DNA of 64,000 nt. Source: Cirrosporium novae-zelandiae (taxonomy: Eukaryota). The translations under genes were made by a program, and so were the position numbers. Positions 1 through 27,400 of this stretch are shown here, piece by piece. Position 1 is the stretch's first letter. The number at the start of each line of letters is the position of its first letter. A model generated the notes under the pieces. That model did no database searches. It saw only the letters and a program-made list of their open reading frames with translations, and was not told where the DNA came from. The stretch lies in contig JAPETS010000017.1 in the NCBI GenBank assembly GCA_026023565.1, positions 434,001 to 498,000 of the forward strand, given 5' to 3'.

Positions 1-3000
1 GGAGTGAGCTCTGGGGCCTTGGTTGCGTAGAGCGTGCCAAATATGTCAATGATCAGGTCTTCGATTTGGTCGGGGGGCATGAGGTTGTTATTCAGCTTCT
101 TAAGCTCTACAACGTCACGAAGAATGTCAAGGAGAGGATGGGACGTTGTTTGCTGGTGTGCCCAGGTCTCCAAAGCCGCAGAGTTGGTTGCAAATTCCCA
201 CGGGTTGATGACAGAGGAAGTAAAGTAGTTCTCGCCATTGGGACGGCAATGACTTACGTACCGAAGAAGTTTGAGATTGGCATCCAGAACCTCTCGCCAG
301 ATCTTGTCGAAATCCATAAAGTCGGTGCTTTTCTTTCGGACGCGCTTGGCAAGGGCGTCAAGACCGTTGCGATCAGTGAGCTTGTAGAGTAATTGGGTGA
401 AAAAGAGAACGTAACGACCGGTGTAAACAAAATGACGACCTGGCCTTTCATGCTCAGGTTTCCAAACCTGGCAGGTCATGGTTTTAGTGAAAATCTGTTG
501 CGTAAATTCATGTTTTGCACCCATTGCTGCGGTAACGTTTTGGGAGTCGTCGTAAATCACATGTGCGGCTCGAGCAATCATTCGATGGTGCCAGTTGGCC
601 TTATCAGCGGTTCTCAAATATTTGAGTATGTTCAGCATGTAGTTCTCCCAGTTATCGTCATCCTTGCATTGTGAAACCTTTCTCGCGTAGGGGGTTGCTT
701 GGAGGATCTCACTCCCTGCTGCGGCCGTTATCTCTCCACGGTGAACAAGCTTGTGGACGACTGAAACTAGTTTGAAATGTGGCTCAAGGATTGGATCTTG
801 CCTACTATCGCGTTTCTTTGGGAGTGCTTCAATAGCCCCGACAAATTCATCGATAGCGTCACGATAGCTAATCCTTGGGTTGTTTTGGCGCACATCACCA
901 TCACAACTATACATTTTCCACAAGCATTTCCCCAGCATATAATGAGCCATCCAACGCCTGGGCGTGTCAATCAATGATTTCTGAAGCAGGACACTAGCAA
1001 ACTTCCAGGCTCCATAAAGTTTCAGATTTGGAAACGGCTGCTGTTTATAAATACCACCACCAAGGTGATTGCTACAGAATCTCTTGACATCCTGAAGACT
1101 GAATGCCTCCATTGAAAATGGCTCTCTTGAAGCAGCATAAACCCGGCAACCAAAATGGTAGAAGAGATCTGACATCTCGTTGGCTTGTTCTGGAGTTGGT
1201 TCCGGCGACCTCATTATAATTGCTAGAGCCATAGTGTAACTTTTAATTGTAATGCGTTGGTTCTGTACCAAGACCCCATGCTGATAGCCATTGATCTTAT
1301 CCGCGTTCCATGTGACATCTTCATCAACCTTGGCATCAAATACCTGCCCGTAACGATACCAGGCATTCCAGTTATCTGTATCATGCTCCAGGGCATGAAA
1401 TAAATATGTGCGGGCAAGGTCAAGGTCATCTGTCAAACCGGCCATTGTCCGTTTTTGTGATTGAAATTTTATGAGATGCATCTGGCCTAGCATGTAGTAC
1501 CATCCTCTTTTAGCAATGTATGCGCTATCACCACGGACAGGCGCCGTAGAAAGCTCACCAATACCACTGAGTGCTCTGTAGAGATCGAATGGGTTGATAG
1601 GTGCTTTGAGATAAGCGTTGATAATTCTTCTGTTGAAGGAGTGGCCGCTAGGTGTTTTTGGTAGTCCTAACGCTTCTGACATTTTATCAATCGTCGTCTT
1701 CAATTCTGTCTTCAACACATCTTTCAAACTCATATTCTGTCCATTCGTTATATACTTCACGCAAACCATAACTTGTTCTATCAAATTCATGGCTGTTGGC
1801 CTGTCAAGAGCCACAGACTCACATCCATGATCTCTGATGTCTGTTGGTTGAAAGCAGATTTTAATACCATGTAGGTCAAACAATACCTGCGAAAGCGGTA
1901 GATCAGGAGGATGTCCTTCTTCGTTGGGATTTTCAATCACACGTTGATCCACGAAGCGCATGAGTTCTCCTTTGGAAACTTTGAGGAAGACTTTTTCTGC
2001 AAGTGAGCATTGCATCCGTAAACCCAACGATTCATGAACAACGCTGATATATTTAGCCATATCTTCCGCAAATTCAGTAGTTACTTTAGTGGGTGCGGTA
2101 GGTGGAGGCATCAAAGTCCAGATTCGTGATTGACTATATCCTTCTTGCAGCAAGAAGTATAGGACAAGCCATGCACGAACTGTCATGTGTCGAAGCCTCA
2201 TACTGAAATTTCGAGCTTGCGTGCGACTACGGTCGGATTCGGATATATGGATTCGGCCAATTCTTATCAAATCCTCGTATAGCATAAAACTATGAAGAAG
2301 CCGGCAGAGCTGAACCATAGCACGCAGAGAGGATCGGACATGGTCCAAATCCATAGCTTCAAAGGCATCGAAAGCATTCATGATTAAATGCAGGGTCCGT
2401 GAGAGAAGTCCGTCCAGCAGTTTGAAAATGGTGATTATATGAACTTCTCGATCGGATTTCGAACTCTCACGATACGCACGGCTCTCAAACTCACCCACAA
2501 GGATTTCTATACCCCGGAAATGGCAAGACAATATTTTAGGCTTATAGTCAATAGCCGTATAGGCCTCACGAAGCCTGCGCCACAAGAAAAGTTTCAAAGT
2601 ATATTCACTCCTCTTGACAAAGTCGACAACTTCCTGGATATGAGTATCGCCGTCTAAGCTTGAATTCTCATCATGAAGTTGTGCATTTGCTTCCTCATCA
2701 ATCCCCATCTCTTGATCCAATGGTTTCAAAATTGGCTCAAGGATAGGCTCCAGATTCTCAATGACAGAGATTGGACTGTCTTGATTAACGCTGAAAATCT
2801 TTTCAATAAAACTTTGCGTACTTAACCTAGATATCTCTTGCTCAGCGGAATCCACAGACAATTCCGACATCGCCCTATTATTGGGTAATCTGACTACTAA
2901 TGCATTAGCACCCTTAAGGGTGTCCTTTAGCTCAGTAAAACATTGAACTATTTGGTCGCGGGATATATTTTCTGTTGTTGAGAGCTGCAAGGTCGAAGCC

Positions 3001-5474
3001 CATATATAACGAATTGATAATACGTCCTTCAAATGCTCAGTTTCACCAAGTGAGCTAGAATATGGTCGTAGGAGGTCTCCGGCAAGGAGAGACCAGCGTT
3101 TCAAGGACTCCTCTTGGACATTCCTGTCGAAATCGGAGTCATGATTTCGAGAATTACTTGTAGAGAGGTAGTTATTGAGATGTAGCTCAAACAATGTCTC
3201 AACCATATTTATGAGACCACAGTCTTCAAACGAGTAGGAAAATTTGTACCCAGACGCTATAGTTTCTTGAATTTTATCCTCCAAGGATTGGATCTGTTCT
3301 CTCATAGCTAGGAAGATGAATTTGTCAAACCTAGAGATAAAGTTAAACACCGTCGACTTGAGTTCATCTGACCATAAGTATTCTGTGTATGCTGAACGCC
3401 AATAGCTGAACGGATTATGCTCATTAATCCAACTTCGGGTTGTTCTGGATCCAGGAAGAAGCAAAGTTTCGAGCCATTGAAGCCCAACTTCATGGATAGT
3501 ACAATGACTCTTATTGATATCTTCGACGAACTGTTGGACCCCTTGCTGTTCAGGGTACCGGGGAAGATCGTGATTCTTCGAAACCTTTTTACAATCTTTG
3601 AGAAATCGAGCCATGCCTGCGTCTCTAGAAGTGTGAAACGTCCGTTCAAGCTCGTCTAGTTCATTCGCGCCGACCACAGCTGTTTTTTTCTGCGTATTCC
3701 AGTCCTTGAGAAATCCATGCATATCTTTAAGTGCAATGCGAAAAGTCCCCTCGCCATCTTCTTGGACTAAGGTTTCGCATTGATTACTATCTTTGACGTC
3801 ACCTATTATTTCTCGAAGGTGGTCAATGGAACCTAGGGTGGGACCATCGCATTTTTGTAAGATACTGTTTACCGTATTAAACGTGACATTATCTGTTGCC
3901 ACATATTCGCGAAGTTGATCTTCCCAATATTGCTCAGTGTTGATAAGTGGCCCGGTCTCAATAACCGATGCTTCTGCTAATGACTCGCGAGCCCGGATTC
4001 GCTTGCTTCTGAGACGACCTTGGTCTGCTGGGTCCTCAATAGCAGCAGAGTCTGATGATCGCTTTCGGGGAGATGTGCTGGCTCCTGTTTGCTCATTATT
4101 TGCTTGAGCCTCTGTGGGAGTGTCTCGAGTTGACAATGAGTCCTTGATATACGTACTAGGCGTTTCTTTGTGTTCATTGTGGTGTTGTAAAATCGTTTGC
4201 TGGTTGTTTGAATCATTGGGGATAGTTCGAGCTTCCTTGGACTGATCGTGCTGTTCAGGGCTAGAGTTAGGATCACCCATGGGAACGTCACCACCATTTG
4301 CATCATTTCGATCCTTCAAAGGTTCTGTTTTTAGGCCATCGCTGCAGCCTTCCATCCCCTTACCTGTAACGCTCCGCGTTTCGTCCTCGTGAATATTATG
4401 TTTGGAAGAACTAACAACCCTATCCTGAAGTAATTTGGCATCAAGCCCTGGCGGACCCGTAGACGTATCTTCTCGTGTAGGGAGATGAATTTGTTTCTCT
4501 GCAATAGGTAGAACCAATGACACAATCGTTCCCGCTTGTTTGAATAATCCAGTTTCATAGTCCGACAGGAGTCCTAATATCTTGCTTCCAATTAATGACC
4601 AGGATGCCGCTTCGACCTCAATCCTCATGTGCAGTTTCTCTTCGTAAATTTTTGAGGACATAGAGCCAACATGTTTAAATGCAATGCTCTTAGAAGGTAG
4701 GAATGGGTATGGATCCAGTCGTCCCTTCAAAGCGGCGAGAGGAAATCTGTTAGTGTGCTTCCGCTTTGATAATATTTGAATGGCCAACTCGTCGCCCAAT
4801 TCCCCCGTAAGCCTCCCTAGATATTGGTCGGCAATGCTCTCGTTAAGGCCCATGGCCTCGAGGCTGTCCTTGAATCCATCGCCATCCTCGCTCAGCACAG
4901 CCTCAAGGCAGAATCTCGCGATGCGCTTACTGTCTAGAACACTAGCAATTTTGGCTGCTCGTCTCCATAGTTCCCCGTCTGTTTCGTCCCTGCTGAGGGC
5001 TTCTGAAAAGTCACCCATTACATATTCGATATAGCCCCGATTAATCTTGGAAGTCTCCTCATCAACATCATTATTCAATAGCCGATATTTCAATTCATTT
5101 ATGATAGCCTGCCCTCGGTTCTTGAAAGAGAGGTAGACAATTTGGGCAAGGGTATTCGAAGCCGTATCAGTATTATTCGGAAGAGGAAGGGTATGGGGAG
5201 CTGCGGCGTCTGCTCCATGGTGCTCCTGAGCTTCGTAACCATATTCAATGCGCTGGGCTTGACCAAAGCTCTCTGGGTATTTGAATATCTCAGAAGCGAA
5301 TAATGCTTCGTAAGTGTCTCGTGTCTGATCAAGAAATTGAGGACCCTGAGATTGATACTTGAGCGCAGTCTGATAAAGCTTCAGCGCTTCTTCCGTTTGG
5401 ATTTCTTTGGTATCATCGATTTCTTCTTCACTTTCGCTATCAGGCTCAATATTGAGCGCCACAAAAGTGGACAT
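1..5474 (-). CDS. HIR3: Histone transcription regulator 3 (Hir3/Cabin1 family, HIRA complex); 3' end lies beyond the window edge (>1820 aa here)
   Basis: ATG at 5474 gives MSTFVALNIEPDSESEEEIDDTKEIQTEEALKLYQTALKYQSQGP...LFASEIFKYPE, the typical fungal Hir3 N-terminus. The same frame still reads as protein at the window start (..DLIIDIFGTLYATKAPELT). It is missing from the ORF track, consistent with no stop codon inside the window. Confidence 0.9.
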   Translation of the reverse strand, partial: MSTFVALNIEPDSESEEEIDDTKEIQTEEALKLYQTALKYQSQGPQFLDQTRDTYEALFASEIFKYPESFGQAQRIEYGYEAQEHHGADAAAPHTLPLPNNTDTASNTLAQIVYLSFKNRGQAIINELKYRLLNNDVDEETSKINRGYIEYVMGDFSEALSRDETDGELWRRAAKIASVLDSKRIARFCLEAVLSEDGDGFKDSLEAMGLNESIADQYLGRLTGELGDELAIQILSKRKHTNRFPLAALKGRLDPYPFLPSKSIAFKHVGSMSSKIYEEKLHMRIEVEAASWSLIGSKILGLLSDYETGLFKQAGTIVSLVLPIAEKQIHLPTREDTSTGPPGLDAKLLQDRVVSSSKHNIHEDETRSVTGKGMEGCSDGLKTEPLKDRNDANGGDVPMGDPNSSPEQHDQSKEARTIPNDSNNQQTILQHHNEHKETPSTYIKDSLSTRDTPTEAQANNEQTGASTSPRKRSSDSAAIEDPADQGRLRSKRIRARESLAEASVIETGPLINTEQYWEDQLREYVATDNVTFNTVNSILQKCDGPTLGSIDHLREIIGDVKDSNQCETLVQEDGEGTFRIALKDMHGFLKDWNTQKKTAVVGANELDELERTFHTSRDAGMARFLKDCKKVSKNHDLPRYPEQQGVQQFVEDINKSHCTIHEVGLQWLETLLLPGSRTTRSWINEHNPFSYWRSAYTEYLWSDELKSTVFNFISRFDKFIFLAMREQIQSLEDKIQETIASGYKFSYSFEDCGLINMVETLFELHLNNYLSTSNSRNHDSDFDRNVQEESLKRWSLLAGDLLRPYSSSLGETEHLKDVLSIRYIWASTLQLSTTENISRDQIVQCFTELKDTLKGANALVVRLPNNRAMSELSVDSAEQEISRLSTQSFIEKIFSVNQDSPISVIENLEPILEPILKPLDQEMGIDEEANAQLHDENSSLDGDTHIQEVVDFVKRSEYTLKLFLWRRLREAYTAIDYKPKILSCHFRGIEILVGEFESRAYRESSKSDREVHIITIFKLLDGLLSRTLHLIMNAFDAFEAMDLDHVRSSLRAMVQLCRLLHSFMLYEDLIRIGRIHISESDRSRTQARNFSMRLRHMTVRAWLVLYFLLQEGYSQSRIWTLMPPPTAPTKVTTEFAEDMAKYISVVHESLGLRMQCSLAEKVFLKVSKGELMRFVDQRVIENPNEEGHPPDLPLSQVLFDLHGIKICFQPTDIRDHGCESVALDRPTAMNLIEQVMVCVKYITNGQNMSLKDVLKTELKTTIDKMSEALGLPKTPSGHSFNRRIINAYLKAPINPFDLYRALSGIGELSTAPVRGDSAYIAKRGWYYMLGQMHLIKFQSQKRTMAGLTDDLDLARTYLFHALEHDTDNWNAWYRYGQVFDAKVDEDVTWNADKINGYQHGVLVQNQRITIKSYTMALAIIMRSPEPTPEQANEMSDLFYHFGCRVYAASREPFSMEAFSLQDVKRFCSNHLGGGIYKQQPFPNLKLYGAWKFASVLLQKSLIDTPRRWMAHYMLGKCLWKMYSCDGDVRQNNPRISYRDAIDEFVGAIEALPKKRDSRQDPILEPHFKLVSVVHKLVHRGEITAAAGSEILQATPYARKVSQCKDDDNWENYMLNILKYLRTADKANWHHRMIARAAHVIYDDSQNVTAAMGAKHEFTQQIFTKTMTCQVWKPEHERPGRHFVYTGRYVLFFTQLLYKLTDRNGLDALAKRVRKKSTDFMDFDKIWREVLDANLKLLRYVSHCRPNGENYFTSSVINPWEFATNSAALETWAHQQTTSHPLLDILRDVVELKKLNNNLMPPDQIEDLIIDIFGTLYATKAPELT

Positions 5475-6066
5475 TGTGCTGTGTCGTCTCAAGGAATAGG
5501 TTGTTTATTTATATGGACGATGGTGGAGGGCTTTGGGAGATTATATAGGAATTCATTAACTGTTGAGCTTCCGTGGATCGCCTTGTTTATTCAGTCGGCG
5601 GATCTGTGCTTTGTTTTGTACATGAAATATATATGCTTGCTTATAGCCATGTTTATTAGTTATTACATGTGAAATGGCACCACATCACCAAGTGAAGTTG
5701 AGGGAACCGTGAGAGATTCATCTCGCAACGGCTGGTGTCAAACGCGTCAAAGCTTCAAGGTTCTAGATGCACGGACCACGCTTTAAAGTAGTTCACGATG
5801 CCTCGATGTAAGGCAGGCTCTCCCTCTATTAACTAACGAGAATTATGGAATATTCCTGACATTCAAGAAAGCATAGAAACGATATTTACAACATCAAATT
5901 TTTTTAGGAGGTACGATCCCACTTGGTGCTTTGGATTGGAAATTGCCAACTAAACAAATTATCTGTAGTCTGAAGTACAGTATAATTGGTCCGAACAACT
6001 GGCCTTGAGCTCCGAAGGCCTTTATGCGAAATAATCCCGTTCGATAGACCCAGTATCGCCGTCAAA

Positions 6067-17788: not shown

Positions 17789-18107
17789 TCTTGCAATCCT
17801 TATTATTCTAGAGAAAGTGCTCATATTGTCTTCTACCACCAGTGCCATATATATATATTCTACAACTTTTTCTTTCAACTCTCATTTCCATTTCCATTTC
17901 TTGCTTTATCTCATACTCTTCACAATCCCTTTGACCTAAAACCACCATCTCGCAAAGATTTTAGTCTGTATCATTGCTTCTGGCTCTGGCAGCTGTGGCA
18001 AAACTAGTCGCGATACTTGAACTTCTTCCGCTCAAAGATCTATCTCTGCCTGAAGTGTTATATCTCACTCCCTACAAGCAAAATTACAAAGGCCTCCTCC
18101 AGCAACC

Positions 18108-19369
18108 ATGTCTTCCTCACACTCAAACTCAACCTTCGATCCTTTTGATCAGGTCATAACCCTCCAAACCCCTAACGGCGAATCAATTCCGCTCCCCCTT
18201 CCTATCCTGCAAGAATTCATCGACTACCAAACCAAAACCGTCATCAACTATGGCAGTCAGCTCGGTGCCTCTCTGATAGTCCTCATCATTCTACTCCTAC
18301 TCACAAGGCCCGAAAAACGGACTACAATCTTCGTTCTTAATTCCCTGGCGCTCTGTATCAACTTCATCCGATATGTGATTGCATGCTGTTACTTCACCGG
18401 TCCCTGGAGCAACGTCTATGCCTATTTCACTGGCGATTACTCCAGGGTCCGACCAACCGACTACGCACAATCTGTCACTTCGGAAGTGCTTCCCCTTTTC
18501 GTCCTCCTGTGCATCGAAGCATCACTCACGCTGCAAACCCGTGTCATCACGAAGACCATGAAATCTCTATACGGCAGTGTCTTGCTCCTAACCTCGGTGC
18601 TCGTCGCGCTTGTAGCCATCGGCTTTCGCTTCGGTATGGTAGTCACCAACTGCGAGGCAATTCTGAATACGGAGGCATACATAGAGTACCAGTGGCTGCT
18701 TTCAGCAACAAACATCACAACCACGATTAGCATATGCTACTTCAGCGCCATTTTCGGAACCAAGCTCGGCTATACGATTTGGGAACGACGTCGTTTGGGT
18801 CTCCGGCAGTTCGGTCCCATGCAAATCCTCTTTGTGACAAGCTGTCAAACCCTATTCATTCCAGGTACGTACACTTCCTCCCTCCTCCTCTCCTTGTTCT
18901 TTATCCCATCTCCTCATCACATCATCCAATACAAACTAACATAACAACAGCCATTTTCTCCATCCTCCAATACCCCCTCCCCAACGTTCCCGTAATCTAC
19001 ACCAACGTCCTAACTCTAACCTGCATCTTCCTCCCCCTCTCAACCCTCTGGGCCGCCTCCCACACTTCCACCTCCTCCTCCGCCCCCCCGAATTTCCGCC
19101 CCCGCCTTAAGGGAATCCGCCTTCTCCCCTCCTCCTTCTCCGCCTCTTCCTCCTTTTCTGCAAAACGCCACCTCCTATTCGGGAGCTGGATGAACAACAG
19201 CAACAAAAGCAATAGCAGAAGCACATGGGGTGGTAGTGGTGGTGGATCGAATTTGACCTCGACAACAACGGCGGTGGATACGACTGAGATGGGAGAGAGG
19301 GAGCGGGATATGGGTATTTTGGAGGAGGGAGGTATCAGGGTCAATAAATCTTATAGTGTTGCTAGGTAG
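18108..19369 (+). CDS. STE2: Alpha-factor pheromone receptor (Ste2/PreB family 7TM GPCR)
   Basis: FDPFDQVITL, INYGSQLGAS, IFVLNSLAL, EASLTLQ, KLGYTIWERRRLGLRQFGPMQILF..CQTLFIP|AIFSILQY and LPLSTLWA. Intron 18865-18950. Confidence 0.95.
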
Positions 19370-20302
19370 TGAGTGAGTAGTATGTGTGTGTGGCCATCCA
19401 TCTGGGAATCATGATGAAAAATATGAAAAATATAAACCACCACTACTACCACCACTACTGCTACCATCATCATCAACCAGGGGTTTATGGTTTAGTTTAA
19501 TATAGGAACCTTTTTTTTCTTGCGAGCGATATCTAAACCTGAGACACTTAAGACTTGAGACTTGGCTAGCTAGCTATCTCTCCCATCTCTCCCATCTCTC
19601 TCATCTCTCTCATTCCTTACTTTTAAAATCAACTCAATTATCAATTGTTCATTATCATACCAGTCAATTCAATCCAATCCAATATCACTTTCTTATCTTT
19701 TTTTTCTTTCTTATATATATGTATGTAACCAACCCACCAAAAAAAGGAAAGGAAATTCCTTCGAATCGAATCTCTTTCTTTCACGCATTTACATCTATAT
19801 CCACCCCCCATATATATATACACACACATGCATATTTAACTAACACCTCCTCCTTCTCCCACTCACCCATCCACCACCAAAAAACACTCCTTCGAATCTA
19901 TCTTCCCTCTCTCCTCGTTCACACCCACACACCCATATATATATATATACTAACGCCTTCCCCCGCCGCTCTCCTCTACCCACCCCTTCCTCACCCTCAA
20001 TCTCAAGTTCAAGTCTCCAGAATTAAAAATAAGGATAAGAAAAAGAAGAAGAAGAAGAAGAATGGTAATGATAGTACTGTTGATGTTGACGTGGACGTGG
20101 ATAGGTTATAGTTGATTGTGGTTTTTTTATTGTGGGGGAAGGGGGTGTGTTTATTGTGGAGGTAGGGGGGAATTGTGAGAGAGGGGGATGGGGATAGGGA
20201 TTGGGGATTAGGGAAATAACCGAAAAGAAAAGAAATGGAAGGAAGGAATGGGAAAGGAAATGGAATAGCTATATAGATATTTGAATTATTTGTTATACTC
20301 AC

Positions 20303-20337
<35 letters not shown>

Positions 20338-21234
20338 TCCTATTCCCTTCGATCAATACATCATCCATCCCATCCCATCAATCCCCAAACCAAACCAAAT
20401 CCCTTCTTCTATCCCTTCTCCCCCCTTTTCCACTTTCTACTTTCCACTTTCCACTTATTCCTACTTACTATCTATACATACATTCCTCCCCTTCTTTTCT
20501 AAAAAAAAAAAAAAACTACGATTTGATGCATACATAGATAAGATAAGATGGGTAAGACATAACAAAAAAAAGAATGAAAAAGAGAACTTATATAGTGTTA
20601 TAGCGAAGCACAATGTTATATAAATATCTCTAATACTGGGTATGTATCTATATCCGCTCAAGTAATTAGCAGATATCTATCCCACGTCCTTTTTGGTTTT
20701 TGGCTTCGTTAGGTAAGAGTGAGTGTTGGGCCAACCTTGCCTTTCTAACATATATATAGTCAACTGCTTTGATTAATTGGTTATTGTTAAATCAATGCAA
20801 AATTCTCATTTAATAAAAACTATCTATATATCTAGACTATTTGTTTGCTTACTTATTAGTAGCTAAGGGAAGAGGGGAGGGGAACATCAAAACATGCTTT
20901 GTCAATTTGTAACTTGATCCTACTAACTAAGATCAGGGAAAGTCTTGAAGGAAAGGGAAAGGAAAGTAGAGAGAAGGGCATAATGGATTAAATGAAGCCG
21001 AATCGAATTAAAACCTGCGCATATCGGAAAGGAAGGGAAAGGGAGGAAACAAATTGGTTCTTGAGAATGCATGATGTCCGTCCGTCATATGAGATAGTCT
21101 CGCTTCATTGCAATCTCGTCTGCTCCACTGCTTGCTGAGCATCCCTCATCATGACCCTGCATAGGTTTCGCATCGGAGAAGAATAGATAAAGAAGACTGA
21201 GTTAATACACACCATCCACACCGCTCCCGTTTCA

Positions 21235-24200
21235 TCAGAGATAAAACATGCTCTCCGCCAAACTCTTACTCCAAGGTTTCCTCCACGCATCATCACCGTC
21301 TCGCAACTGCACTGGCAAAATCCACCCGTACCTATGATCTTTCTCCATTAGTTGTGCGATGTTGGTTGCATAATTTAGATCGGATGTGCCTCTGCTTTTG
21401 GGGGGGAAGTTGCAGTCGAGATTTGTGTGGCCATCTAAATATTCTTTGATGTATAGCTGGCCGCGGGCGCACATGAGGTCGGCCATGTAAGCGGGAGTGG
21501 CGTAGCTGACAGCTTTGGTGGCACGGGGAAATACGTAGCAGATATTGTTGGTCTGGGAAAGGTTAGTGGGGTTGTTGTGAAATGGAGATGTATTTGGCCA
21601 AAGACGCAAGAAAAAGTAAGTTGGGAACAAGTAGAAATATAGCCCGAGATAAATAACATCTGTATATGATCATAGTATATTGGGGATGTGTCGCCGTAAA
21701 GTCACCAGAGCCTTGTCATTGTTTTTAGTAACATAAGAACTTCAGATGACTTACAAATTTGAAAATCTCTTCGTGCGTCAGCCCAATCTCGTTGAGAAGA
21801 ACAATATAGTGGGCGGGTATGGCGGTTCCCTTGAGAGCGTAATGGCTCTGAAGGTAAAATTCGGGTTGGCACCGACTAGTAATATAGTTGCTGACGAGGA
21901 GGCCACACTTAAAGCTTCCCTCCGATCTGGGACAAGTATCTTTAGGATTAACTGGATAAAAACGCTTTTTGTGACGTTTGGAGCAAATCACAAATGTGAC
22001 TTTTGGCATGTAGCTAGGGAGTTTTTTTGCTTCTGCAAAATCCGCACAAGCTTTTTTGATCTGCGGTATCTCTCCAATGCGGACAGCTTCGTATTGACTA
22101 TCAGCTACGCCGTCGCGATAGAAAACTATATTGTTAGGAAGACAGTCGTTTTTGTTATACCAGGCCTGCAGTCTGTCTCCCATCATTTCGCAAAGGTTAT
22201 GCATAAACTAAAGGTCACCAATGTTTGTGCTTGTGTACTTATATCAAGGAATGCTACTTGCCTCCGAGTTTTTCCTCTGAAGGCGCATCGAGCCCGGATA
22301 AAACCCAAGATTATCATCTACAGTTGCCACCACAGCGTTGATCGATGGAGTGCCCTGGGCACTATTAGGTCTACTATGGGACACGTCGGCCCCCACAATC
22401 ATTGTTGAGAACCTGCCTGTTCTCGGATCCCGGAGTTTTCCTGGGATACATTTCTGATCAAGAAAATGATTGATCCCACCAAGCTTCGCATTAGCTTTGG
22501 AGGCAACATTTGACATTATCGATGCGTGTCTTCCTCCAATGCTTAGAAAGTTTTCTTCTGTCGTAGATACTGTATGGACCCCCACAACTCGGTCTGCTAC
22601 CCGCTTTGCAAATGCATATATCCAGGAGTCTTTATCATTTGGAAGGACCATAAATATGAATCTACTTCCATTTCCGGTCTTGAGGCCTTTAACAATTTCT
22701 GCTAAAAGATTCTGAAGATGATTGGAGAACATCTCCCGGATCCGAGGATCTATATGCAGTTGTTGACTCTGTCTGTCATTGACAGACATGTATTTCATAG
22801 GAGAATCTTGCCGCGAGACCTGAATACCATGGCTTTCGAAAACTGATTTGACCTGATCGGTTTTTCGTTTAAATTTATCGTTTAGGGGGGCTTTACCTAT
22901 CTTAATAAAACCGACGATGGCATGCACAGATTCTCGGAACTTCCTTAAGCCCCCGCTACCATTCGTAAGGTTCCAGGATGCTTGTGGGGATATCGCGACA
23001 GAGTCGTTTCTTTTGTAAAGCATCTTTGGTGTTGCCATGAAGGAGGCTGGTATTTTCAGGGGCTCGCATGCTATCTCAATACCAATGTTTTTCCTCTATT
23101 CATTGTTAGTAATTTCCTTAAAACCTCTTTGTAAGGACTTACAAAATTTGCTTTGGCAAGTCCTGAAATACCGAGGATATTTGCACCCTCACCCTCTACC
23201 AACTTTGCATTAAACCCTGGTCGTTTCACCGAAAAATTTACCAGTCGGCCCCTTTCTGTGGAGTTCAGTTCTGTCTTGCGGCATACCTGGTTCGGCTCTA
23301 TCGTCAAGAACTCAGCGGGGATCCAGATTGGCGTTTTGATAAACCCAATATTAACGGTAGGCAATGCTTGTTTAGTAATTGGCGAACCCTGTTGATTTTG
23401 AAAGTATTCGAGTACGGTGATCTCTTTCTCCCCGCGGTCTGTTTTCATGATAAATTTCTGTTCCATTGGAGGTAACCCAAAGTTAACAAAGGCACCCACA
23501 CCTTCACCTTTAGGATATTTCCACCTCATCTTAACAGATTCCAACAATCTCTCCAATATTTTGCATTAGCCTTCTTTCAGTGCTGTTCTGCCATCAACAT
23601 TACCAAGCGCGCAATATTCTTTGATGACATTCACTAGAGGTATGTTGTGGAAGAATATATGAACGATTGGGTTTACGTTCACAAGGAGGCCAGAAAATCC
23701 ACAGTATGCCGAAGAGAAGATACCCTTTCTAGCGAAGAAGAGTCTACTCAACTCTTGCTTGAATTTGGGATCCTCAACTAGTGGTATGTATTTGTTCCTG
23801 CCAACAGGGATAACATTATCGAACTGGCAAGGAAATTTTGAGATGAATGCGTTTAAAGCAGTTGCAGCCTCAGTGAAGTTGAAAGAATTGTTAAAACTGT
23901 CGCTGAATGCTTTAAGCTTTGCATGATTGATTGTATCTCTGTAGCTTATTGCGAAATCATTAAGGTTCTTATCTTGGCCATTCATAGACCCATATCCAGG
24001 GCCCTTGATTATTTTAACCTTTTCATTGAATGGTTTCTTCACTGAAAAGACGGCTCTGAGGTCGGTTGCCCATTCGTTAGGGTCAACGTTGAACTCCCTG
24101 TGCGTATACTCCTTGAGCGTAGCAAAAATAGCCCTGAGCTTTTCTGGGTTACTGATAGGCTTCACGCCTTCTGTAAGAGCAACATCGTAGATAAATATAT

Positions 24201-24462
24201 CCTTCATAGGATATGTTAGGCGAAAAGAGTTTATTCGAATGTAGACGGAAGACTTGACAGTCAAGTATTTGTCTTCCTTCTGAGGCTTGTAGATGCCATT
24301 ATTATCCACTAAACCTCTAAGCTCATGAGTCATTTGAGGCAAGATACTTCTCTTTGCATCTCGAGGGCCTCCTTGAGCCGCGGGTTTGTTCATTCCAGCA
24401 GAAGGATTTACTGCAGGTGGCTTAATTAGCATCAACTTTTGTTTGGCAAGTTCTCCGTCCAT
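21235..24462 (-). CDS. Argonaute (QDE-2/SMS-2-like; N-DUF1785-PAZ-MID-PIWI), interrupted by one in-frame TAA at 23568-23566
   Basis: PAZ (ITVLEYF..LPTVNIG..WIPAEFLTI.PNQ), MID (YAFAKRVAD..GVHTV, KANAKLGGINH) and PIWI (MIVGADVSH, YRDGVADSQ, FYLQSH..GTAIPAHY, RATKAVSYATPAYMADLMC, MFYL-stop). Introns 23142-23096, 22261-22208 (GC-AG) and 21754-21553. Functional status is uncertain because of the stop codon. Confidence 0.9.
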
Positions 24463-27400
24463 TATGAAGATGTGCTCCAGGTGTCCAAGTAAATAAGGTC
24501 TCAAGTTTGGTAACTTGATCTTTTGATTGAAAAACTGAGTAAAGGGTATCTGAAAATAAATGAATATCGAGACTTGATAACTTGAAAGCCTTCTTAAGAT
24601 AACCTGGAAGAGAGTATCTATTTTATGCTGGAGGGCAGAAGAATAAAAAAGGTAAAGGAAAAAACAGAGAGGGGGTAAGGAAGAGGCAAGGAAGAAATAA
24701 GAAGAGACAAAGGGAGATAGGTATTAGAGCTCCAAAAAGTAAATGATGATTCCACCGTTCGAATTATTGGAAGAGTTGAGCTTGAAGCATGAAATCTCAA
24801 TGCTTAGAGATGTGCTGTTTCTCTAGTGACAAGATGGCAGTTGATTAGGCTCCACTGGTGTTTTTTGATTGCCTAGTTTAGGATATAGATATTTTAATCA
24901 GAGTTAGATGGTCATGAATATCAATATATGAGATGTATTTAGGTGAATGGCTAAAGGGTGAGTGAATATAACTGAAGGTGTTTGTAGTTAGGGAAAAGGA
25001 GGTTTGGATAAAATAGCTCGGAAATTTAGGCTCATTAACCGAGATACTAGACCTATTTGGGATTCAACGCTTCACATCCAAGATATCATAAAATATCTAT
25101 AAATAATAGCTTGCATGTATACTTCGCTCTTAGACTGTAGGCCGCGATTTGCTTTCTACTACACCATATCAACCGCAGGGTGTTGCTATCCCCAAGATAC
25201 GAAATTAATAGTATCTCAAGTATTCAAGTCCTTTAAATGCATTGATTCATTACTTATCGGACATTGTTCTTATCCCATTCGCTCCATTTGTCTCTTATAA
25301 CCCAACCTCAGATTATCAGAGGCTCCTATAGTCCACACGCGCACGTTGATAGCATCAAAGCCCAGTTTCTTACTGAAACTCCATTTAGAAACAGCATAAG
25401 TTCCTCCGGCAACAAAAATTCCCCGAGATTTCGGCCTCGGTGAATTAGAGTGCATCCAGAAATACTGCAGATGTCACAACTATAACCTAAGCTATCGGCT
25501 ATTCAGACATAGTTAAGGACAGTACTAAGAACAGCGACAGTCAGAGTACCAATTACACATCGAATCAATGCTCTTAATACCGGTGCTGAAATCATTGTTA
25601 AATATTCGTCAAAGTTATAGTACGTACCCTTCGGATTATTTATCAGGGTCAATTTTCCGACTCTTGTGACCAGATCTGATCCCCAGTCAAAAAGAGCTCT
25701 CATCATGAGTGATAGACCTTGCATCCTCGAGTCGGTTTCCCAGAGCCATTCGATTTCGGCCAGCTAGTTGCGGAGGACTCAATGCATAGTAATTGCACCC
25801 ATGTAGCTCATTTAATGTGTTGAATATATACCCCTAGGTCTCAGAGGTTTAAGAATGGAAAACACGTCATTCCATAAGCTGTATGGGTTTCTTCCAGCTT
25901 CTCGAAGACTTACTTGCCTTCGTCTTGGATTCTTGTCTCTATGGTAATTGAGTGTATACTGGATAGCAGTCTTCAATTGCGGCTTTTGTATTGAAAGCCA
26001 GAAAACTTCAAACTTCACAGCATTATGAGTAGTTAAGTTCGAGCAAAGGAGGATGGAATTTCCATAGTGATGTCTGTGACGTAAAGATCCTTGTTTCTAA
26101 ACCAAACCAAAGGAAGTATTCTTTAATTTGTCAAAGATCTTTCAACCCCTCCCCCCAGTTATTTATCACATTCTCTATAATCAGATGATTCAGCGTTCTA
26201 CTCTTGCACTGGCTCGCTGGAAATATAAGCCCAATTGCTGACGTCGTTACGGACCATAATTCGGGAGCCAATGGATCTGTCCAACCGGAGGGGGTTAGTT
26301 GCCATTAGGATAGGTTTACTATATATTCGAGATGATGACGAGAGATAGTCCAAGTTTCTCGAAATATATAAATAGGCCAGCTAAATGGTGAAGCACGCGG
26401 AAATTCTAGCCTATAAAATAAAGGAGATATTCACAATTAGCTACCTGGGTGTGTACCCCGCCCGCTAACAAAGACTTGCGTTTCCCCAAGGTGGATTCGA
26501 CTATAACTGTAGATCTCATGGCTGTGTTCCTTCGCAACAAGCAGCTAGCTAGCACATGGAAATGATCAGCAGATAATCAACGACGTGTTCGCTATAACTA
26601 GACAGTCTTAATCGGAGGAAAAAATTTTCATCAAACCTGTTGAATCTTCGGTCATGCAAAATTGAATTGTTTGTGGGTACAGTTGAAATTTTTGAGCTAA
26701 AATTAATATCGAAAGATTTAGGAGTTACCCCATGTTAATCATATCTTTGTCATGCCTGCCGTCATCCCCTATGTCTCTACTAACATACGTAGTGGGCAAG
26801 ATAACCTATAAACTCCTAGCACGTTGTACTAGTCATAGCCTGTATGATATCCTGGTGATCTGCTTTACGGGTTGACAATTTGAGGGTTTAAGGGTGTTAG
26901 GCAGCTTGGTGGTTCGTATCTTACATTGTATGTATAGATAGACTGTGCCTATAAATTCCAAAAGGTGTTAGAGGATACTAGGAAACTCATAATGCCCTTG
27001 TGAAGTAATAACAATTAGGTTCATATATAGAATAATTGATAAGAGTTTATTACGATGCGTGTAATGTATAGAGCAGCGTTTAGATAGAACAGACAGACCT
27101 TGAGGCAATATGTAATTATTTTGAGAAATGTCAACCTTTCATCGATGTTCATTTTTAGTTTCGTGTATGTCTTCAACAGCTTCAACTATTTTATTGAGTT
27201 CCGCCTACAAAACCTACCCCAAAGATTAATAACTCGTCAATATCTCCGCTCTTAAGAAATCCTTTTGATAATACATCTTCCAATCACATCATTCAACGCC
27301 AACATTGAATTTGATATGTAATAGCTTTTATTCGATCTTTGCTCTCGCAAAGAGATCTACCTATATCACCCAAACACATCAATTTGGCACCTAGAAGAAG

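Follow-up and report, generated by a model that had tools for sequence, protein, structure and literature searches.

Within contig JAPETS010000017.1 of Cirrosporium novae-zelandiae (assembly GCA_026023565.1), the 64,000 nucleotides between positions 434,001 and 498,000, here called the window, contain a minus-strand gene for an Argonaute protein whose reading frame is broken by a single in-frame TAA at codon 299. The species is placed by the NCBI taxonomy in the Xylobotryomycetes, Pezizomycotina. We consider that the gene is probably a young nonsense allele or very young pseudogene, or else a null variant carried only by the individual that was sampled. In the first turn of the first PAZ helix, a sense codon would have changed to TAA; a protein started at Met1 would stop after 298 residues, a product that consists of the N and L1 domains only. 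Because this product would have no PAZ, MID or PIWI domain, it would neither bind a guide nor slice, and the allele would be null.

The gene extends from 24462 to 21235. When its spliced model is translated it gives four exons and 974 codons, followed by a terminal TGA, and the internal TAA is the sole defect. The minus strand reads ...CTG AAA GAA GGC TAA TGC AAA ATA TTG GAG... at this point. A preliminary description of the same DNA had noted two Argonaute open reading frames (ORFs) in one frame, parted only by GGC TAA TGC AAA ATA. This is confirmed by direct reading and by the stop-to-stop ORFs 24723-23566 and 23565-23071, which share a frame and have the TAA codon as their only separator. 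The ORF starts given in that description (24504 and 23556) are probably alternative start codons taken from an ORF listing, 23556 being the TTG of Leu303. Its statement that there is no further stop or frameshift also holds over the whole 974-codon spliced frame, which has one internal stop, at codon 299. Across the six frames of the window there are three places where a single stop parts two stretches that are each free of stops for at least 100 codons, and only this one is a TAA.

The three introns of the model had been described as clean. This is true of introns 1 and 3, which have GTAAGT donors, but intron 2 needs a GC donor, GCAAGT. Use of this donor retains 28 Piwi residues (FMHNLCEMMGDRLQAWYNKNDCLPNNIV; FMHNLCEMM...NNIV), which align without gaps to homologues, for example to EMIDKLEEMFGERLDLWYAKHKNLPDRII of the database protein P0007, and a single HMMER domain crosses the intron 2 junction in 194 homologues. 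Intron 2 is assigned as a GC-AG intron because the conserved Piwi segment would otherwise be lost.

The annotation proposed here differs from the public one. An exhaustive representative search identified two public proteins that match the gene at 100% identity. P0002, of 298 residues, corresponds to codons 1-298 and ends at the TAA. P0003, of 637 residues, starts at Met312, and its residues 1-129 are identical to residues 312-440 of the query; in one source it carries the name 'MAG: hypothetical protein M1834_002247 [Cirrosporium novae-zelandiae]'. At intron 2, P0003 takes a nearby GT donor and a later acceptor, by which the 28 conserved residues are lost and 2 are gained. The public annotation cuts one Argonaute gene in two at the stop and mis-splices intron 2. 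Instead of two hypothetical proteins, the locus should be annotated as a single disrupted Argonaute gene that contains a GC-AG intron.

On the basis of its sequence, the gene is identified as a divergent QDE-2-like eukaryotic Argonaute of the AGO clade. The N / L1 / PAZ / MID / PIWI architecture of that clade was recovered from Pfam, from a Foldseek comparison of the N-L1-PAZ part, and from the match of the MID-PIWI part to the Neurospora crassa QDE-2 chain 2yhb_A, which is the best sequence match among solved structures (E 5.8e-47). In the Pfam analysis ArgoL1 lies upstream of the stop and PAZ downstream, with Piwi in exons 2 and 3 (48.3 and 115.4 bits). The PAZ match spans profile positions 51-116 of 123, so that the domain is expected to start about 50 residues earlier, around the stop. 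The motifs GADVSH, YRDGV and PAHY align to the QDE-2 motifs YDVTH, FRDGV and SAHY, and the Glu of ...KNSE aligns with a conserved E of the homologues. We take the Asp of GADVSH, the Glu of KNSE, the Asp of YRDGV and the His of PAHY to be the positions of the slicer catalytic tetrad; on this alignment the slicer residues (Asp, Glu finger, Asp, His/Asp) all appear to be present. The gene thus resembles QDE-2 and other fungal AGO-clade Argonautes in its domain order N-L1-PAZ-MID-PIWI and in the alignment of the GADVSH, YRDGV and AHY motifs. It differs from them in being only 27-32% identical to database proteins, and in that the uninterrupted frame expected after splicing is broken at codon 299 of 974.

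No close relative was found. When the read-through exon 1 was searched by word index among proteins of 771-2200 residues, no match was obtained. In the exhaustive representative search, the two identical split models were followed by matches of at most 40% identity, mostly 22-34%, and a search with P0003 against proteins of 350-1115 residues gave nothing above 32%. The gene is therefore a long-branch member of its family. The closest relatives (P0152-P0157, 29-32% identity) are Basidiomycota (Amanita, Mycena, Ceratobasidium, Botryobasidium) mixed with Dothideomycetes (Plenodomus). It is worth adding that two database proteins, P0020 (259 residues) and P0101 (332 residues), match N-L1 alone (query residues 64-273 and 66-291). 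Both stop close to the same domain boundary, and they may be either fragments from contig ends or short forms that are genuine.

Several lines of evidence show that the TAA lies in coding sequence rather than in an intron. A single HMMER domain extends across the stop in 95 homologues. In a MAFFT alignment of these the column of the stop holds a mixture of residues (Q 12, D 10, S 9, E 9, N 8, R 6, 19 gaps and some others), and the residues that follow, CKILERLLESVKMRWKY, align with a conserved L-x-x-F-L-K-G-L-R-V-x-T-x-H/Y motif, of which Leu303 is the first conserved Leu. These residues correspond to the conserved first PAZ helix and strand motif. The Arabidopsis AGO10 chain 7sva_A also aligns through the stop, with the TAA opposite a residue of LSDSDRVKIKKGLRGVKVEV. 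When exon 1 was read through and submitted to AlphaFold with a 45-row alignment, the prediction had a mean predicted local distance difference test score (pLDDT) of 80.6 and a predicted template modelling score (pTM) of 0.74. It places codon 299 in a helix of residues 297-306, which is preceded by a loop (284-296) and followed by the first PAZ strand (311-316). The best Foldseek match of this model is the N-L1-PAZ part of human AGO1 (4krf_A, E 7.1e-23, TMq 0.64), and AGO2 was matched as well.

The ancestral codon, the decay of the messenger RNA (mRNA) or absence of a product, and how recent the event was are matters that we infer. The preliminary description had listed four options and chosen none of them; the first was a recent CAA to TAA change in the context favoured by repeat-induced point mutation (RIP). 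A point mutation to TAA is the best supported explanation, but its origin by RIP is not supported. CAA is the sole sense codon one transition away from TAA; AAA, GAA, TCA, TTA, TAC and TAT likewise differ from it by one step. The simplest single step is thus a C-to-T change in CAA, although the homologue column does not pick among these codons. The suggestion that Gln would fit the site agrees with the alignment, where Q is the commonest residue of the stop column (12 of 95, with 19 gaps), and with the predicted helix. The usual RIP thresholds are about 0.89 for TpA/ApT and 1.03 for (CpA+TpG)/(ApC+GpT). The gene has values of 0.77 and 1.33, its neighbours 0.52-0.74 and 1.23-1.45, and the whole window 0.79 and 1.26. 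An origin by RIP was rejected on two grounds: the dinucleotide indices are like those of neighbouring genes, and there is one lesion rather than many. Reassignment of TAA as a sense codon was likewise rejected, as ORFs of 1834, 716 and 711 codons are open under the standard code and the window has one case of this kind. A scan for transfer RNA (tRNA) genes gave none in the 64-kb window.

The rest of the gene is intact, and this applies to its splice sites as well as to the catalytic residues aligned with QDE-2 (two Asp and the His). Of the substitutions in the coding sequence, about 3.5-4% would create a stop. Under a simple model with assumed indel:substitution ratios of 0.05-0.2, the lack of a second lesion would limit the neutral divergence accumulated after constraint was lost to roughly 0.4-1.2%.

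Some points weigh against a young nonsense allele. A single lesion is equally expected of a functional recoded gene, and intactness cannot tell a young pseudogene from a gene in use. The database searches gave no orthologue closer than 32% identity in which to follow conservation of the stop or the ratio of nonsynonymous to synonymous substitution (dN/dS) downstream of it. The stop is seen in no independent individual, since the only DNA run that contains the stretch may be the assembly's own source. Finally, of the genome the analysis covered the 64-kb window, and any other Argonaute copies would lie outside it.

Two alternatives would remove the stop from the gene altogether. One is that splicing removes the TAA in phase, as part of an intron that is small, weak or non-canonical. 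The stop does sit in a branch-like GCTAAT, the gene already has one non-GT donor in its GC-AG intron 2, and the length of the loop before the stop differs between homologues. To evaluate this, all in-phase GT/GC...AG pairs of 36-400 nucleotides spanning the TAA were enumerated, 203 in total, and their donors were scored against GTAAGT. Such pairs exist, for example GTGAAT at 23634 to 23551 (84 nucleotides) and GTAATG at 23603 to 23508 (96 nucleotides). The second of these had been described as a donor with no in-phase acceptor. In fact it has acceptors at both 23508 and 23502, but their use would delete 32-34 codons, including the PAZ motif. All in-phase introns across the TAA have weak donors: none of the 203 pairs has a donor with more than four of six matches to GTAAGT, whereas the real introns of the gene have GTAAGT, GCAAGT and GTAAGT. 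The earliest AG downstream of the TAA falls in codon 304, past the conserved Leu303, so that any intron ending in AG deletes at least C300-E304, including this Leu; longer introns take out the entire PAZ motif. The read-through sequence is, moreover, predicted with high confidence to be a regular helix, and aligns to AGO10. Homology and the splice-site enumeration thus disfavour the weak intron put forward earlier, to which we attach a low probability. The other alternative is an assembly or sequencing error, the true base giving a sense codon. In its favour, the record is a metagenome-assembled genome and the stretch is contained in one run only. However, a separately assembled contig of 10,974 bases from that DNA run, with a mean word depth of 358, shows 0 differing letters and 0 gaps over positions 21000-24800 (3801 bases), which makes a consensus error unlikely. 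The site is also a substitution-type difference in GGCTAATGC, outside any homopolymer. The run is the only one that contains all sampled words of the gene and is possibly the source of the assembly itself rather than an independent individual; even so, the sequencing error considered in the preliminary description is most doubtful. None of the runs listed for positions 21200-24600 was of RNA, and from two other runs of the same study no contig matched the stretch at a likeness as low as 80%; neither result is informative on expression or on presence elsewhere.

The remaining alternatives accept the stop and propose that it is bypassed. The first, which was also among the options of the preliminary description, is that a sense codon is regained through sexual-stage A-to-I editing of the mRNA. 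Fusarium and Neurospora have premature-stop-correction pseudogenes that are repaired in this way, and according to the sections of the two reports cited here such editing occurs in Pezizomycotina (PMC10776026, PMC11156358). At the present codon, the first A follows a U, which is the base preferred at -1. Those pseudogenes resemble the present gene in being from Pezizomycotina and otherwise intact, with a single premature stop. They differ in that, in the same sections, the corrected stops are UAG edited to UGG (PMC10776026, PMC11156358). The codon here is UAA, not the UAG that is editable in one step; both adenosines would have to be edited to give a sense codon, and the second of them follows an A, which is disfavoured at -1. 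Editing of UAA to UGA leaves a stop (PMC11156358, cited part), and in Fusarium TAG-to-TAA alleles were used as 'uneditable' alleles, with deletion-like defects for all tested pseudogenes but two (PMC10776026, cited part). The codon of the gene is thus the one used in experiments to block editing. As far as the cited part of the report extends, neither Aspergillus nidulans nor Botrytis cinerea was found to have genome-wide editing, and the classes with editing beyond Sordariomycetes and some Pezizomycetes are given as undetermined (PMC11156358). The editing route is contradicted by these observations and is very unlikely, with scarcely any probability left to it, and nothing was found in support of the stage-conditional silencing Argonaute that had been suggested with it. 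Readthrough of the UAA, either constitutive at a low level or regulated, could instead yield some full-length Argonaute. The frame downstream of the stop is fully intact, and near-cognate decoding gives low basal readthrough at any stop. However, the fold of the 126 nucleotides that begin with the stop is no better than that of shuffled sequences (z -0.99; equalled or surpassed by 36 of 200 shuffles), the window has neither a tRNA gene nor another TAA-interrupted gene, and the context is UAA UGC rather than UGA-CU(A). The readthrough motif of fungi and animals is UGA followed by CU(A), and replacement of UGA by UAG or UAA lowered readthrough, according to the cited part of the report (PMC4207609). 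With Ustilago maydis, the same part provides a precedent from a fungus, besides those from animals, for the functional decoding of a stop, but there UGA with CU stands at the normal end of an ORF and gives a short extension, while here UAA UGC stands in the middle of a gene (PMC4207609). Readthrough is accordingly given little credence. Lastly, the locus might make two products, an N-L1 protein of 298 residues and a PAZ-MID-PIWI protein of about 660 residues from Met312. The second might arise from an internal transcription start or from reinitiation 13 codons past the stop, and the pieces might act separately or reassemble non-covalently. This agrees with the presence in the databases of exactly P0002 (298 residues) and P0003 (637 residues), with the position of the break at the L1/PAZ domain junction directly after loop 284-296, and with the in-frame ATG 13 codons downstream of the stop. 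The split models are, however, automatic predictions forced by the stop and no proof of expression. Met312 lies past the first PAZ helix and inside the first strand, so that the second piece would begin with a truncated PAZ, and the search with P0003 found no relative with the same split among proteins of 350-1115 residues. Reinitiation in eukaryotes after an ORF of 298 codons is very inefficient, and we know of no eukaryotic Argonaute made of two chains. Expression in two pieces is therefore improbable. Taken together, the idea that the stop is tolerated, with the gene working through small and possibly condition-dependent UAA readthrough (a tightly dosed Argonaute) or as a two-chain Argonaute cut at L1/PAZ, has only a slim chance of being correct.

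Table 1. Positions of the Argonaute gene, its exons, introns and domains in the window (numbered from the first base of the 64,000).
Feature	Position	Strand	Evidence
Whole Argonaute gene	21235..24462	-	Spliced model; Pfam ArgoL1/PAZ/Piwi; homologue alignments
Exon 1, N + L1 + PAZ; first ATG 24462-24460	23143..24462	-	Read through, predicted as one N-L1-PAZ unit in AlphaFold/Foldseek
ArgoL1 PF08699, codons 233-271	23650..23766	-	Pfam E 2.3e-4; 21.2 bits, just under the curated cut-off of 22
In-frame TAA, codon 299; first turn of first PAZ helix, L1/PAZ junction	23566..23568	-	Direct read; alignments; predicted helix 297-306
ATG of Met312, start codon of public P0003	23527..23529	-	P0003 alignment
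PAZ PF02170, codons 334-402	23257..23463	-	Pfam E 8.1e-7; 29.5 bits against a cut-off of 28.8
Intron 1, 47 nucleotides, GTAAGT ... TACTAAC ... TAG, phase 0	23096..23142	-	
Exon 2, L2 + MID + first part of Piwi, including first catalytic Asp (GADVSH)	22262..23095	-	
Intron 2, 54 nucleotides, GC-AG (GCAAGT ... TAG), phase 0	22208..22261	-	Homology; mis-spliced in public model
Exon 3, Piwi core (YRDGV Asp; PAHY His)	21755..22207	-	Piwi E 3.9e-33; 2yhb_A alignment
Intron 3, 202 nucleotides, GTAAGT ... CACTAAC ... CAG	21553..21754	-	Junction also used by P0003
Exon 4, Piwi C-terminus, ...ESMFYL then TGA (21237-21235)	21235..21552	-	Aligned to QDE-2

Other features were noted in the window. A CT-rich simple repeat at 20269-20500, which translates as SLSLSL... 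in several frames, lies about 700 bases beyond the stop codon of the Argonaute gene. A STE2-type alpha-factor pheromone receptor gene lies at 18054-19369 on the plus strand (Pfam STE2, E 6.7e-90), with some 2 kb between it and the 3' end of the Argonaute gene. The last segment of its profile is found in another frame some 58 nucleotides further on, which is consistent with a short intron. The ORF of 1834 codons, at 3-5504 on the minus strand, runs open to the edge of the window, and Pfam gave no match to it at E <=0.001.

Decay of RNA interference (RNAi) genes in fungi has a precedent in Cryptococcus deuterogattii, which, according to the part of the report cited, lacks AGO1 and AGO2 and has DCR1 and RDP1 as truncated pseudogenes (PMC4778953). 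The two cases are alike in being natural inactivations of a core RNAi component. They differ in that the lesions described there are large deletions fixed across a lineage (PMC4778953, cited part), whereas here there is one point lesion in one genome. Given this precedent, the present finding is an ordinary one unless a bypass of the stop were shown. Its value for annotation is mild, and it would bear on regulated silencing only if RNA or protein data showed such a bypass. If readthrough or a two-chain Argonaute did operate, it would be a new way to gate RNA silencing in a fungus. If, as seems probable, the gene is a young null allele, it would provide a snapshot of fungal RNAi-gene decay at its first lesion, in the poorly sampled class Xylobotryomycetes.

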